DNA from: a virus
Length of the DNA stretch: 40,035 bases
Reading direction: 5' to 3' (one strand)
Virus genome (UHGV): UHGV-0090445
This document shows positions 18,481 to 24,561 of this stretch, piece after piece. Positions within the stretch are counted from its first letter, which is position 1. Each line of letters opens with the position of its first letter. The notes beneath the pieces are model-generated. The model was not told where the DNA came from. It worked only from the letters and a program-made list of their open reading frames with translations, and ran no database searches. Made by a program: the position numbers and the translations under genes.

Positions 18481-19896
18481 TCAACCTACACCACAAGGAA
18501 TTGAGTAACTGGAATAGTCGGGTTGCGCAGCCGACTCCGGGCAATGCATACACATCATCAGCGCATCAGCCAGGTTAGGAGATGGAATACCGAGCTTCTG
18601 CTTCATTTCGACCTTAGTCATAAGCTCCAGCTTCCCGTTGTTATTGAATTTGCGCTGAATCTGCGTCAGTTCTGCAAACAGCTTCTCCAGCATCTTCTCG
18701 CCTATCGCTTCTTTGTCGAAGCTCAGCATGTCGTCGGGGTCTGCATACTCACCGTGGACAACCGCCCGATATGTCAGATACAGCCTGTCAGCCAGCGCGT
18801 AATAGAATTGCGCTCGCTTATTGCGGAACACATCACCAATAGTGCGAACGTTGTCACCCTGTACGACTTCATCAGCCCATGCTCCGGCCTGATACGGCGC
18901 ATCTTCATCGAATGGCGATTCACTTCCCTTGAACATCGTGGCGGTGATTTTCTTGCCGGAGAACGCTTCCGTTGTCTGTCTGCGTAGGCCCGCACCGACG
19001 CCATCACCGTCCCACAGGTAATGGTCAGCGCCGTCTTCAATCGCCAGCGAAGTAGCCCAGTCAGCACCCTCGTTGATGTCCATCAGCAGACCTTCGGCAA
19101 TACGCTTAACTACCGAACCGTGACGCGATGCGTAACCTTTAGCATCTGGACCTGTATCTGACGGGTCATGCGCAGAGACAACGGCGCCTTTCGCCTTCCA
19201 TCCGAGTTTCTTGTGCGCATCGGTTGCGGCTTCAAGCCATTCACGTTTGATGATTGCCATATCACTTGCGCTTACCGGCTCACCAAGCCAGATGTGACGA
19301 TACAGTGTCGGATTTCTGCGTTTACACTCTTCCATCTCCAGACGGAGAACTTCAGGAAAGTGCGGGTTGTCGGTGTAGTTCACCGTCAGCAGACAAATAT
19401 CATCGGGAGGATTTACGACGAATCGCTGATAGGTATCGTCGAGGATGTTCTTAGGGTTAAAGCTCACCCATATTTCGGAAAACGGCTTGCGGATGGTTGG
19501 TATCAGGATATCCCATGATTCCTTCGTTACCGCTTCCGCTTCCTCCACCCAGCAGATATCAATACCTTCTAGCGATTTAATCTTCGTCGGGTTGTTTTTG
19601 ATGCCGTAGAACATGAACTCAGCATTCGTTCCGAGATGACGAATCATGGAACGCTGAATTTCAAACTCAGCCGAATACCCTTCACGCTCGATGGTATCTT
19701 CAAGCAACCGGATTACCGAATCGCTGATACTGTTTTGCAGTTCACGAGCGCAGAGAATACGCACAGGCTGCCGACGTGCCGCCTCAACAAGCAGCCTCGC
19801 AATTGCCCATGATTTACCGCTACCTCGACCGCCTTTGGCGACTTTGTAGCGATGCGCCTCAATGAACGGTTCAAAGATAGGATTAATCGAGGTCAT
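18481..19896 (-). CDS. Terminase large subunit
   Basis: 471 aa; Walker A KGGRGSGKS near N-terminus; followed by portal. Confidence 0.9.
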   Translation of the reverse strand: MTSINPIFEPFIEAHRYKVAKGGRGSGKSWAIARLLVEAARRQPVRILCARELQNSISDSVIRLLEDTIEREGYSAEFEIQRSMIRHLGTNAEFMFYGIKNNPTKIKSLEGIDICWVEEAEAVTKESWDILIPTIRKPFSEIWVSFNPKNILDDTYQRFVVNPPDDICLLTVNYTDNPHFPEVLRLEMEECKRRNPTLYRHIWLGEPVSASDMAIIKREWLEAATDAHKKLGWKAKGAVVSAHDPSDTGPDAKGYASRHGSVVKRIAEGLLMDINEGADWATSLAIEDGADHYLWDGDGVGAGLRRQTTEAFSGKKITATMFKGSESPFDEDAPYQAGAWADEVVQGDNVRTIGDVFRNKRAQFYYALADRLYLTYRAVVHGEYADPDDMLSFDKEAIGEKMLEKLFAELTQIQRKFNNNGKLELMTKVEMKQKLGIPSPNLADALMMCMHCPESAAQPDYSSYSIPCGVG

Positions 19897-20333
19897 TTTC
19901 CGAATAGAGTGCTCATCGGTGATGTTTCAATCTGAATTGCGCCGCCGTCTTTGCCTGTTAGCTCGTGGTCAACCTTGTCGCGCCATTTATCCTTCTGTCG
20001 GTTCTTAAGCCAGAAGATGGCGGCGGTTGTATCAGGCGGGTAATACTTCTCAAGCGGAGTTTCGACAATTCTGTTTTCAATAACACGAATATCGATGTCT
20101 GGAGCCACGAAGCCCATAGCGCGTTGATAAAGACGATCACTAACTTCTGCATCAGCGACGGCCTTACCCTTTTTTATGGACTCTAAAAACTCCGGATATT
20201 CCAATTTCCAATTGTTGATTGTTGCCTCGCTAACTTCAAAGAAGTCCGCGAGTTCGGCGTCTGTATAGCCCAGCAAGCACAGTTTGCGTGCCTGTTCGGC
20301 ATACGCCTCTTGATACTTCGTTGGGCGCGCCAT
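19893..20333 (-). CDS. Terminase small subunit (Sf6 gp1-like)
   Basis: 146 aa; C-terminus ELTGKDGGAIQIETSPMSTLFGK matches the remembered Sf6 small terminase C-terminus; overlaps TerL start. Confidence 0.85.
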   Translation of the reverse strand: MARPTKYQEAYAEQARKLCLLGYTDAELADFFEVSEATINNWKLEYPEFLESIKKGKAVADAEVSDRLYQRAMGFVAPDIDIRVIENRIVETPLEKYYPPDTTAAIFWLKNRQKDKWRDKVDHELTGKDGGAIQIETSPMSTLFGK

Positions 20334-20335
20334 GT

Positions 20336-20578
20336 TTATGCTCCGGTAGTGAACAGGTCTAACGCTTCCTTCGATTTACGCACCGCTTCGATAGTGCGGG
20401 TCGTGATATCTGAATTAGCGCCGCCTGACTGGAAGTGAATTTTGAATAGCTCAAGCTTCAGCTCGTCAGTGCCAATGAATTGAAATGCTTCTTCTGCGGC
20501 TGCGTTCTGGTTCATGACCAGCTTGTAAATCTCTAACTGGAATTTCTGTTCTTCAGTCATGGGAATAATCTCTGCCAT
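20336..20578 (-). CDS. Hypothetical protein (80 aa) upstream of terminase
   Basis: ORF from track, tightly packed against terS; no family recognised. Confidence 0.5.
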   Translation of the reverse strand: MAEIIPMTEEQKFQLEIYKLVMNQNAAAEEAFQFIGTDELKLELFKIHFQSGGANSDITTRTIEAVRKSKEALDLFTTGA

Positions 20579-20681
20579 TGTTGGCTCCGTTTATCCGTTA
20601 AAAGGGATATCAGTTAAGTTATCCCGTGTAGGGTATAAGCCATTGTCAAAGCCACTCTGTAGGGAATGGCTTTTGTAATAA

Positions 20682-21056
20682 CTACTGTTCGCTTAGCTTC
20701 TGCTTCAGCAAGTAACCTTCGAGCATCCAGATTTTGTTTACAGCATTCTGCCGGGCAATCTTCCGACCAATTTCTGCATCAAAGTTTTCCGGGCTTGCAC
20801 AGGCACTCTCTCCGGTAACGGTGAAGCCATTCTTCAGTACCAATACGCAGAAAGTGAGAAGGTGCAGAGCATCAGGGGTGGCTTCGACATAAGGCTCCGG
20901 ATTATAAATAAGGTCATCTTCTTTAGCCTGGTGGTCACCCTGCGCAGCAGTGAAAAAATGCTCACTGAAAATGAGGCCTTCAATTTTCTCGGGTGTTACA
21001 CGCGGAGCGGTTTTGCCTTTCTCAACGATTTCTTTTTCGATTTGCTGGTCGTTCAT
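20682..21056 (-). CDS. Hypothetical phage protein (124 aa)
   Basis: ORF from track between lysis accessory genes and terminase; family not recognised with confidence. Confidence 0.55.
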   Translation of the reverse strand: MNDQQIEKEIVEKGKTAPRVTPEKIEGLIFSEHFFTAAQGDHQAKEDDLIYNPEPYVEATPDALHLLTFCVLVLKNGFTVTGESACASPENFDAEIGRKIARQNAVNKIWMLEGYLLKQKLSEQ

Positions 21057-21132
21057 AATTATGACCTTGTTGGTTGTTAAAGATGTTTTTGTGATGGCGA
21101 TAAAAAGGCCGCCTGAGCGACCTGTTAGTTGT

Positions 21133-21321
21133 TCACAACTTCCATTGCTGAAGGTTCAGCATGTCGAAAAATGAGCCGCATTTAGGGATATTTTCCATTC
21201 TTGCCCTCTCTTCAGCCGCTTTGTAATAAGCCATTGGCCTTTTCACACCATCAGCACCAGTGATGTATTCAACGCCTTCCTTCTGGTCTTTGTTTACGGA
21301 AACCATCGCAACATCTTCCAC
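21133..21321 (-). pseudogene. Possible frameshifted small gene (62-aa GTG ORF plus overlapping 38-aa ORF)
   Basis: A 38-aa ATG ORF (MNLQPYGKKDSLWW...) overlaps the 5' end of the 62-aa ORF in a different frame, suggesting a disrupted or frameshifted gene. Confidence 0.3.
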
Positions 21322-21496
21322 TTGTTCGTTATCGATTCAGCGGATGTCTTTCCATCAGTCCGCCACCACAAAGAATCTTTTTTGCCATAAGGCTGGAGGT
21401 TCATCTTTCAGTGGCTGCCAGTGTTATTTCCCCACTTACTGGCTTGGGTTGTTTCGCTGTACTGCCGTAATGCAAAAACTGGATTAACCTGCGAAA

Positions 21497-22027
21497 TCAC
21501 ACCATTCCGGGCAAATACATTTGCACTTCATTTGCCGCTCTCTCACGTGCAACATGAAGCAATCTTTTTCGCCCACCAACGCCCCACTTAGCCATTTGGC
21601 TTGCGCACTGGCTTATCGCTTTGGTTTCAGTATTGATGATGTGATCGATTCTATTCAGACGGGACATTGCGCCAACGCCGAGACGGACAACCGTTTTGAA
21701 AACTTCATAAACTTCGATTTCAAATTCCGGCTTAATCCATGCTGCATATCTGATTGCCAGAAGTTCAACACCCCACACACCTGGTTCTGCACCACCTTTG
21801 ATTATTTTAAGTGGTTGAATTTGTTCCAAAGTGCTTTTTTGCACTTTGGCCTCCAGTGCTTTTATGAAGCGTTTTATCTGCGCGCTACGCAAAAACTGGC
21901 TTGGGCGCTGTTGCTCTGTAGCCTCTCCATTTGCAACTGCTGCTGCATGGAGATCGTTTAAGTTGTAGCGTCCATCCTCATTAACACGAACGGACACACC
22001 ATTGACAATAACTGTTGGGTGCTTCAT
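21497..22027 (-). CDS. KilA-N domain-like protein
   Basis: 176 aa; N-terminal TVIVNGVSVRVNEDGRYNLNDLH...GVWGVELLAIRYAAWIKPEFE resembles KilA-N/APSES-type DNA-binding domains. Confidence 0.55.
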   Translation of the reverse strand: MKHPTVIVNGVSVRVNEDGRYNLNDLHAAAVANGEATEQQRPSQFLRSAQIKRFIKALEAKVQKSTLEQIQPLKIIKGGAEPGVWGVELLAIRYAAWIKPEFEIEVYEVFKTVVRLGVGAMSRLNRIDHIINTETKAISQCASQMAKWGVGGRKRLLHVARERAANEVQMYLPGMV

Positions 22028-22172: not shown

Positions 22173-22199
22173 TAAAAAAGCCCCGCGAATGCGAGGCTA
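22173..22199 (-). terminator. Hairpin plus U-tract downstream of Rz
   Basis: Minus strand reads CCTCGC-ATTC-GCGGGG followed by CTTTTTT. Confidence 0.4.
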
Positions 22200-22371
22200 A
22201 ATCCTGGTGTTTGTGATGACTGGCTCTTATCTCAACGCAGCCCCTTACCGCGCGCAAGATGCTCAATATCAAGCATCAGCAATGAGATGTTTAATCTGGA
22301 TTCACTCCAGAAGTGATCACCACCCTGTCTACAGAGCCAGATGTGAAGGATGATGAGTAAAATTATCGCTA

Positions 22372-22809
22372 TCATCGAAGGCATTGCGTCATGATGTACT
22401 CCTGCAGGTAGTTAACCTGCGCGGTTATCCTGTCGATTCCGCTTCGGAGACGGTAATAATTGAGTTCAGCATCTGCTGTAAGTCTTGGGCTTTCTCCATC
22501 GCCCATGCTGCTGGCTCCGGTCGTTGACTTTGCACAGGTGGCGGCGACTTGCAGCCGCTTACGCCCAGCAGAAACATCATCACGGAGACTTTCGATAGTC
22601 GCGTTAGCATCAGCAAGCTCCTTTGTGTATCTGGCGTCGAGTTCTGCTACATCACGTTGACGCTTCTGCATGTCAGCGATTGTGGATGTGGCCTTATCGC
22701 GCTGCTCTTTGTAGGCGATTGCGTTATCACGGTAATGATTAACAGCCCATGACAGGCAGACGATGATACAGATAACCAGAGCAGAGATAATCGCGGTTAC
22801 TCTGCTCAT
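22372..22809 (-). CDS. Rz: Spanin inner-membrane subunit Rz (lambda-like)
   Basis: [31 protein letters not shown]... matches remembered lambda Rz N-terminus; follows endolysin with overlap. Confidence 0.9.
22425..22616 (-). CDS. Rz1: Spanin outer-membrane lipoprotein Rz1, embedded in Rz in the +1 frame
   Basis: 63-aa ORF wholly inside Rz; lipobox LLGVSGC followed by Pro-rich segment ([12 protein letters not shown]), as in lambda Rz1. Confidence 0.8.
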
Positions 22810-24072: not shown

Positions 24073-24561
24073 CTATGCTACATGTTTAATTTTCTCTACA
24101 CGTTTCCGGTTTTTAAACGCACTATCCAGAACCGGATAAATCATAAACAACGAGGCATTGAGGATTTCGTCAACTTCCCGGCGACAGGTTGCGAGCGATG
24201 GTTTTTGAATGCGCCCGCCGCCCCGGCATAACATCTTGCGAGGTCTTGCGACACGATGATAGTAAGATGCAATGGCGTGCTTGGAAGATCCATGAGCGTA
24301 GTAGCTGAGGAGGATGCCAAAGGCTTTCTTGTCAATGTACATGACGGAATCGACGACCTGAGAAATCAACATTCCATCATCATCATTACACATTGGCCTT
24401 GTCATAACTCTTCCCGGCTCTACGCTCTCCATGAACTTCGCTATTACGCTGCTCATGCGCTTTTCCAGACGACCTGAATAAACCCATGCGCCCCACAGTT
24501 CAAGCCAGCCATTCAGCCACTCGTGCTGTTCTTTGGTGAGGTTTAGTTCTCTTATGCTCAT
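24073..24561 (-). CDS. Late-gene antiterminator Q (non-lambda type)
   Basis: 162 aa ORF immediately upstream of the late leader and S; Cys/His-containing C-terminal half; assigned by position and general Q-family resemblance. Confidence 0.75.
   Translation of the reverse strand: MSIRELNLTKEQHEWLNGWLELWGAWVYSGRLEKRMSSVIAKFMESVEPGRVMTRPMCNDDDGMLISQVVDSVMYIDKKAFGILLSYYAHGSSKHAIASYYHRVARPRKMLCRGGGRIQKPSLATCRREVDEILNASLFMIYPVLDSAFKNRKRVEKIKHVA

Follow-up and report, generated by a model that had tools for sequence, protein, structure and literature searches.

The virus genome UHGV-0090445, analyzed here as a single window of 40,035 nucleotides (nt), carries between its lysis and terminase genes an accessory region in which several small genes and a conserved non-coding block are arranged as a mosaic, and which includes a member of the Acb4 family of cyclic-dinucleotide sponges. 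The genes of this region all lie on the minus strand, as do the other features of the window described below, inside the late operon of a temperate phage that resembles P22 and Sf6. The gene order begins with a Q-type antiterminator (24073-24561, PF06530) and continues through holin, endolysin, Rz/Rz1 (22372-22809) and the accessory region itself to the small terminase subunit (19893-20333, phrog_309), then the large subunit and finally the portal. The DNA relatives of the region are Lederbergvirus phages (Sf6, CUS-3, HK620, P22, SE1 and epsilon34) and Escherichia coli prophages, and we therefore take the window to be a P22-like temperate phage. Four open reading frames (ORFs) of 176, 62, 124 and 80 amino acids (aa), which an earlier sequence-only reading of this DNA had placed between Rz and the small terminase subunit, were recovered at the same positions; because each strongly matches a protein family, they are real genes rather than chance ORFs. 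The outcome that this reading had named as speaking against it, namely that all ORFs match ordinary conserved phage proteins, has largely come about. A 50-aa ORF related to Sf6 gp65, two terminator-like hairpins and the conserved non-coding block had no place in that reading. GC (guanine-cytosine) content reveals no foreign-looking island in the region, and scans of five of its proteins with PADLOC and NCBIfam gave no match and recognized no defence-system model.

The 124-aa protein (20682..21056) belongs to PF13876 ('N4 gp49 / Sf6 gene 66'), the family of Acb4, and its membership can be regarded as secure on the strength of the sequence comparisons. It aligns with profile positions 1-82 of 82 (E 2.9e-34, 117.8 bits against a cut-off of 27), and PF13876 is present in 120 of its 120 listed homologues. 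A phmmer search of the Protein Data Bank (PDB) with the protein itself returned one match, the 'anti-CBASS 4 (Acb4)' protein of Bacillus phage SPO1 (9E4W, E 0.0039), which a profile of 38 homologues recovered at E 1.8e-5; CBASS is the cyclic-oligonucleotide-based antiphage signaling system. Identity with gp49 of E. coli phage N4 reaches 44% over 106 aa (BLASTP E 3e-30). According to the preprint by Chang et al. (bioRxiv 10.1101/2024.12.30.630793), SPO1 Acb4 is assigned to PF13876 and is a tetrameric sponge for 3'3'-cyclic GMP-AMP (cGAMP) and related CBASS signals; its structure was solved with 3'3'-cGAMP, and it rescues phage T4 lacking acb1 and acb2 on a CBASS host. The preprint further reports that cGAMP was bound by eight of eight homologues tested, those with Gram-negative hosts also binding cyclic di-AMP (c-di-AMP), and its Table S3 includes Sf6 gp66 as well as A0A8S7L272, an E. 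coli protein identical to ours at 123 of 124 residues. The Acb4 family was thus described in 2024, and a near-identical protein is already in that paper. For N4 gp49, likewise an Acb4 protein, a 2026 preprint (bioRxiv 10.64898/2026.08.10.743972) shows binding of c-di-AMP at 111 nM and triggering of the PanDA system. The advice of the sequence-only reading to compare the 124-aa protein with phage anti-defence families was sound, the family found being that of the anti-CBASS protein Acb4.

With SPO1 Acb4 and N4 gp49 the 124-aa protein shares the conserved core LLTFCV..NGFTVTGESACASPENFDAEIGRKIA..IW.LEGYLL, a small size and an origin in a phage or prophage. It differs from SPO1 Acb4 in being 28 aa longer, in having an extended helical region at its N-terminus as well as a hypervariable insert (residues ~38-63), in having most ligand contacts replaced, and in being encoded in the late operon of a temperate phage. 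Among 38 close homologues residues 1-37 and 64-124 are nearly invariant, whereas residues ~38-63 (20869-20946 in the window) are hypervariable, with both sequence and length (through insertions and deletions) differing between neighbours; for this reason full-length identity stays at or below 75% in every phage record. The hypervariable segment might represent an insert on the protein surface that is shaped by diversifying selection or by frequent recombination. In the record of phage Huey the Acb4 homologue and a neighbouring gene (locus L001, 382-762 and 997-1497) are both called 'anti-CRISPR protein', which is likely a mis-annotation; for the gp66 homologue we reject this label as an unsupported automatic annotation superseded by the Acb4 assignment.

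Upstream of the Acb4-family gene, at 21133-21440, a 38-aa ORF and a 62-aa GTG ORF had been described as overlapping in different frames, possibly as a frameshifted or decayed gene. This gene is not real: its upstream ORF belongs to the non-coding block, its downstream ORF is an intact gene of 57 aa, and no homologue joins the two. The 38-aa ORF reaching 21440 was not reproduced, the nearest candidate being a 36-aa ATG ORF (21294-21404) that shares 28 nt with the 62-aa ORF but is read in a different frame, finds no match in Pfam or PHROGs family searches and is spurious. As this ORF lies within a block common to many phages whatever follows, the upstream 'half' is not a gene. The 62-aa GTG ORF (21133-21321), for its part, is a form of the 57-aa gene (MVSVNKDQKEGVEYITGADGVKRPMAYYK..., 21133..21306) over-extended by five codons. 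It is matched by phrog_5425 at E 6.7e-42, only over residues 9-62 of the 62-aa form, and E. coli prophages carry homologues with annotated lengths of 54-62 aa. Since homologues from other assemblies and from Yersinia begin MVS, MFS or MS, we take the ATG at 21306, which GGAAGA precedes by 8 nt, as the start. No homologue of the 57-aa protein extends N-terminally into the block, and family, cluster, homologue and exhaustive profile searches found no intact protein that the two frames together would reconstruct.

The 57-aa gene is an orphan of a tiny family, which comprises 15 clusters at 90% identity (5.8 billion proteins) and, in an exhaustive profile search, six representatives among 1.84 billion proteins. 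Its AlphaFold2 model is of low confidence (predicted local distance difference test score, pLDDT, 69), and a fold search of BFVD with this model returned nothing at E <0.1. Directly after the gene lies a terminator-like hairpin with a T run (21106..21123; -11.6 kcal/mol, z -2.7), and gene and hairpin together form an inserted module of ~280 nt (about 21060-21342, core 21087-21342) that extends to the ribosome-binding region of the Acb4-family gene. Among six aligned phages only the window carries it; in Sf6, Huey, phiKp_30 and 611R6 the alignment shows it to be missing at exactly this place. Phage Gally and 26 of 5426 complete E. coli genomes also have the gene and hairpin, always after the block, yet ahead of different genes, and the module travels with other downstream genes in LF82 and 13KWH46. 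Morons of lambdoid phages are genes with their own promoter and terminator, inserted between two genes that are neighbours in a related phage. The window's module is similarly a clean insertion ending in a terminator-like hairpin, but a consensus scan found no promoter-like site for it. The suggestion of a moron hotspot at this position is supported; structurally the module is a moron-like insertion, and the term in its strict sense is not supported. Conceivably, the 57-aa orphan could be a new anti-defence factor travelling beside Acb4.

What connects these modules is a conserved non-coding block of ~126 nt (21343..21468), a universal linker that holds the spurious 36-aa ORF together with a micro-ORF of 19 codons (MAKKILCGGGLMERHPLNR, beginning MAKKILCGGGLMERH...; 21388-21329). 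We defined the block by aligning positions 21040-21520 with SE1, phiKp_30, Sf6, Huey and 611R6; it is invariant across the six phages, which have different flanks. At ≥95% identity it occurs in 163 phage records, including P22, Sf6, HK620, ST64T and epsilon34, and its range is not confined to P22-like phages, as HK97, HK022, mEp234/235, HK140 and HK446 are among these records. Among 129 copies drawn from IMG/VR and from fetched loci there are at least six kinds of upstream sequence, at least five kinds of downstream sequence and 47 combinations of neighbours. The records of P22 and HK97 leave the block unannotated. Int-alpA RNA (RF02996) directly follows the block in the prophage of E. coli 13KWH46 (L010, 2241-2303, plus strand; 45.1 bits, threshold 35.8), and sequence of this type stands after the block in seven of the 129 copies; the window does not contain it.

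The boundaries of the mosaic run through this block. Positions 22398-21342 of the window are 99.2% identical to a prophage of E. coli Z1323CEC0012, positions 21468-20300 are 91.7% identical to another E. coli prophage, and the two matches overlap in the block only, which fits a role of the block as the site of crossover where modules are exchanged. Coverage of the segment is at most 54% in any phage record and 87% in the best E. coli prophage. That the locus is a variable accessory slot, as the sequence-only reading had supposed, agrees with what related phages hold there, namely Rha, KilA-N, a GIY-YIG nuclease or only gp65, with gp66 being optional: Sf6 has gp65-gp66-gp67, P22 has Rha-orf25-Orf80, SE1 has KilA-N-orf118 and epsilon34 has a GIY-YIG nuclease. 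Compared with Sf6 genes 65-66-67 and the P22 rha-orf25-orf80 region, position, strand and order are identical, the genes for gp65, gp66 (its N- and C-terminal parts) and gp67/Orf80 are homologous, and the block likewise comes after the first accessory gene. The window differs from both in joining a KilA-N gene of the Salmonella phage type, the rare 57-aa module and a different middle segment of gp66. Three further observations concern the records of these relatives. In P22 (L169, 1607-2215) ~600 nt between orf25 and orf80 are without an annotated gene, whereas Acb4 or the 57-aa gene occupies this position in other phages. HK97 (L170) contains 186 nt that are 91% identical to positions 20682-20497 of the window, corresponding to the upstream spacer and the first third of the DUF2560 gene; HK97 presumably has this stretch close to its own copy of the block, and a cos-type siphovirus may thus retain a remnant of the module. 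In the record of vB_EcoP-611R6 (L006, 1194-1634) a homologue of the small terminase subunit is called 'HNH homing endonuclease', a likely mis-annotation.

Might the block also act as RNA? Its core (21414..21448) contains a hairpin (CCC 21448-21446 pairing with GGG 21433-21431) with the loop AAGCCAGUAAGU, of which GCCAGU (21443-21438) is complementary to ACUGGC (21422-21417), an arrangement that resembles the core of the Rfam family Proteo-phage-1 (RF03044). The core pattern occurs once in the window, with 0 occurrences expected. RF03044 itself aligns with the window over its full length at 23.0 bits (threshold 42, E 0.37), and gave no match to five other enterobacterial copies of the block at E up to 1. 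We take RF03044 to be a candidate structured RNA stemming from the motif set of Weinberg et al. 2017. The main text of that article does not discuss Proteo-phage-1, and searching the literature for the name was without result. A pattern made from the shared bases retrieved a true RF03044 member in a Pseudomonas-type prophage (L079, 3154-3233, minus strand, 79 bits), together with copies in Pseudomonas genomes and two other viral contigs; the comparison set window positions 21343-21484 beside L079, L135, L150, L131 and L132. All copies have a hairpin with the loop AAGCCNGUNAGU, followed by AACACYGGCAGCC, the loop GCCNGU being complementary to ACNGGC. Across 15 distinct cores 84% of the cells of the two helices are paired, as opposed to 77% in shuffles (0 of 500 reach the observed value), with the core structure having been read from the same sequences that were used for these pair counts. 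The helix between loop and tail is 96.7% paired and includes one double change (G-C to A-U), the core stem has three double-changed pairs, and four pairs in all are thus double-changed.

Loop AAGCCNGUNAGU and 3' segment AACACYGGCAGCC, the complementarity between them and a location in the late region of a phage genome are all common to RF03044 and the block. The block differs in scoring below the family threshold, in its shorter second stem (3 bp) and shorter linker, in a first hairpin that seems not to be conserved, and in lying after the lysis genes rather than before them; it also has a conserved 3' extension of ~70 nt outside the RF03044 model. The first hairpin of RF03044 does form in the window (UUUUU/AAACA, UAC/GUA), but its 5' half lies in the KilA-N-specific flank and differs in other flank types. 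The 3' end of the block (TGGCGGACTGATGGAAAGACATC) resembles sequence that follows the Pseudomonas motif at a distance of ~120 nt. The motif of Pseudomonas prophages has NinG and an unnamed gene on one side and a lambda-S-type holin on the other, and in P22-like phages it follows the lysis genes; the genes that precede Proteo-phage-1 copies in Pseudomonas and elsewhere were examined as possible Q antiterminators, but Pfam and PHROGs gave them no functional name. The minimum-free-energy fold of the block is no better than that of shuffled sequence (z -0.59). The block looks like a diverged relative of the Proteo-phage-1 motif.

The first unit of the region is the gp65-like 50-aa ORF (22232..22384), which has a hydrophobic N-terminus and overlaps the end of Rz; 48 of its 50 residues (96%) are identical to Sf6 gp65, and the ORF is annotated in Sf6, 611R6 and LF82, while E. 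coli Z1323CEC0012 has it with the label 'frameshifted'. Next comes a strong terminator-like hairpin of 8 bp (6 of them G-C) and a T run (22179..22198; -14.1 kcal/mol, z -3.6), and a weak plus-strand match to the Rfam family 'asX2' is this same hairpin read from the opposite strand. ORF and hairpin (22179-22384) make up a second gene-plus-terminator unit in the late operon. The KilA-N protein (176 aa, 21497..22027) consists of a DNA-binding domain at residues 10-113 (PF04383, E 1.4e-17, 63.9 bits against a gathering score of 23.8) and a C-terminal region of ~60 aa, matches phrog_129 at E 8.8e-60 and is encoded by a module of the SE1/ST104/UPF_BP1 type; positions 22197-21343 are 94% identical to Salmonella phage SE1. 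The DUF2560 protein (80 aa, 20336..20578; P22 Orf80, Sf6 gp67) is encoded immediately upstream of the small terminase gene and matches PF10834 at E 1.1e-43 (147.7 bits, gathering score 25), with 97.6% DNA identity to P22 over positions 20592-20338. Its family forms 93 clusters, whose organism-bearing source names are all Enterobacterales (Salmonella, E. coli, Shimwellia and Serratia). The AlphaFold2 model, at a mean pLDDT of 84, is a confident four-helix bundle, for which a fold search of the PDB gave no match at E <1; PDB sequence searches with the DUF2560 and KilA-N proteins returned nothing meaningful. A relationship of DUF2560 to Sequestin (PF21825), a sponge family often fused to Acb4, was considered and dropped, the Pfam scan giving no such match. 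Both the KilA-N and the DUF2560 protein are common conserved phage proteins.

Taken together, we favor, with a probability of about 0.8, the reading that the region is a mosaic accessory segment of the late operon, assembled from independently exchangeable modules, free of any frameshifted gene and including a member of the Acb4 family. Gene structure, family membership, mosaic boundaries and the conservation of the block are directly observed. In the direction of late transcription, the modules would be (1) the gp65-like small membrane ORF with its terminator hairpin, (2) the KilA-N DNA-binding protein, (3) the ~126-nt block joining the modules to its left and right, (4) the 57-aa gene with its terminator hairpin, (5) the Acb4-family protein and (6) DUF2560, and we envision that polymerase modified by Q reads through both hairpins. 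By homology, the 124-aa protein would assemble as a homotetramer and bind the cyclic dinucleotides made by CBASS cyclases (of the cGAMP type, and c-di-AMP in members from phages of Gram-negative hosts), so that these signals would be sequestered upon infection and the CBASS effector would not be triggered. The Acb4 homologue is the sole module to which a mechanism can be assigned; sponge activity of the allele in the window is predicted from its relatives, and the roles of the KilA-N protein, the 57-aa protein, DUF2560 and the block can likewise only be inferred. Several observations weigh against this reading. Four of the six modules are without known function, and the late operon is not an obvious site for an anti-defence gene. 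A scan of the minus strand at 21306-21500, by consensus only, detected no sigma-70-like promoter, nor was one found beside either small gene. Two further points bear on sponge activity of this allele. The text of Chang et al., in its accessible part, identifies no Sf6-type member among the tested homologues. When the ligand contacts of SPO1 Acb4 (K36, F48, E49, V56, Y57, F62, N63, I66, T70 and K81) were compared, just three of the ten were identical, namely F48, F62 and I66, which belong to the adenine and stacking pockets and are retained as F78, F92 and I96. SPO1 residues K36, E49, V56, Y57, T70 and K81 all differ; the positions that are not identical carry D62, T79, C86, A87, D93, I100 and M111, D93 replacing N63, which in SPO1 makes its contact through the backbone. 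Comparison with N4 gp49 at three of the contact positions (F78, T79 and C86) shows the same residues in both proteins. The replacement of the residues that read guanine (K36 and E49) and contact phosphate (Y57, T70 and K81) leaves some room for the Sf6-type clade to have kept the Acb4 fold while binding another ligand or acting otherwise than by blocking CBASS, for example by targeting other nucleotide-signalling defences or by working through the variable insert, and Gram-positive and Gram-negative members already differ in specificity while the insert varies among otherwise near-identical homologues. We regard this as improbable, given that the core (residues 64-124) is nearly invariant across the 38 homologues, that N4 gp49, at 44% identity, is a proven cyclic-dinucleotide sponge, and that every one of the eight family members tested binds cGAMP. 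Less probable still is that the cluster comprises genes expressed in the lysogen, serving superinfection exclusion, defence or as a toxin rather than phage anti-defence. Gene-plus-terminator units are typical of morons, and some KilA-N proteins, such as KilA of P1, are toxic when expressed; all genes, however, are co-oriented with the late operon, no promoter-like sites accompany the units, PADLOC gave no matches, and the sole assignable gene belongs to an anti-defence family.

Two alternatives concern the block and its surroundings. A single gene at 21133-21440, broken by sequencing error, by decay or by a programmed frameshift, could draw on the two ORFs with their 28-nt overlap in different frames, on a slippery-type heptamer, A_AAA_AAG (GCA-AAA-AAG, 21386-21372), that lies in the block in the frame of the micro-ORF, the -1 frame being that of the 36-aa ORF, and on a longer 'orf118' beginning in the block that is annotated in some records. 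We nevertheless consider it extremely improbable. The block that bears the upstream ORF precedes at least five unrelated downstream sequences, and that ORF has no protein-family match; the ATG of the micro-ORF is lost in seven of 126 copies of the block and the length of the A run is altered in six of 126, losses roughly as expected from the average divergence of the block, so that neither is kept better than the rest. As the length of the A run varies among copies, the heptamer is probably coincidental. The annotation of orf118 arises because in ST64T and SE1 the micro-ORF happens to run in frame into DUF2560: the annotated 118-aa protein (SE1 gp48/ST64T orf118 type; L005, 1190-1546, minus strand) is the micro-ORF plus the 80-aa DUF2560 gene, and the true start of such proteins is probably the internal MAEITALT..., so that the annotations probably begin too far upstream. 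Start and length of the 57-aa gene are the same in independent homologues, including that of Yersinia, its variants P0011 and P0012 diverge at the C-terminus rather than the N-terminus, and the exhaustive profile search found no longer relative reaching into the block. The other alternative bears on the block only and is compatible with the mosaic reading: rather than being a passive, recently spread linker, the block would be a functional cis-acting RNA of the late transcript, the enterobacterial form of Proteo-phage-1. It can point to a weak yet full-length Rfam alignment, to the core AAGCCNGUNAGU ... ACNGGCAGCC that is common to the copies and shows compensatory changes, to the resemblance of the block's 3' end to the Pseudomonas copies, and to the position of the Pseudomonas motif, where the late leaders of lambdoid phages lie. 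Opposed to this are a score of 23 as against 42 bits, under the Rfam threshold, a folding energy no better than shuffled, covariation that comes from few lineages with the structure taken from the same sequences, and a first hairpin of the Rfam model that is not conserved among enterobacterial copies; moreover, the near-identity of the copies could reflect recent exchange alone. A real RNA function of the block therefore appears rather doubtful to us, and the cis-acting form of the idea can be held no more than tentatively. The fuller version is somewhat unlikely, according to which the block is the enterobacterial version of a widespread functional element of late transcripts and not merely a recombination joint. 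On this version the element would include, besides the pseudoknotted hairpin of Proteo-phage-1, a conserved 3' segment that ends GGCGGAC...GGAAAGACA; it would be common to P22-, HK97- and Pseudomonas lambdoid-type phages and would control the expression or processing of the downstream module.

What does the mosaic reading imply for P22-like phages? As a whole, this is an accessory segment of an ordinary mosaic kind, from which a false pseudogene call at 21133-21440 has been removed. Its block is a sequence conserved at ≥95% identity in P22, Sf6, HK97 and HK022, for which we found no assigned function and which can now be linked, plausibly, with an orphan motif of Rfam; if this link were to reflect function, the RNA element would govern the orphan gene and the anti-CBASS sponge here. 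A 'hypothetical' gene that is common in P22-like prophages of E. coli, Shigella and Salmonella can be re-annotated as a probable anti-CBASS sponge, and this bears on predicting which temperate phages may overcome CBASS or trigger sponge-sensing systems such as PanDA.

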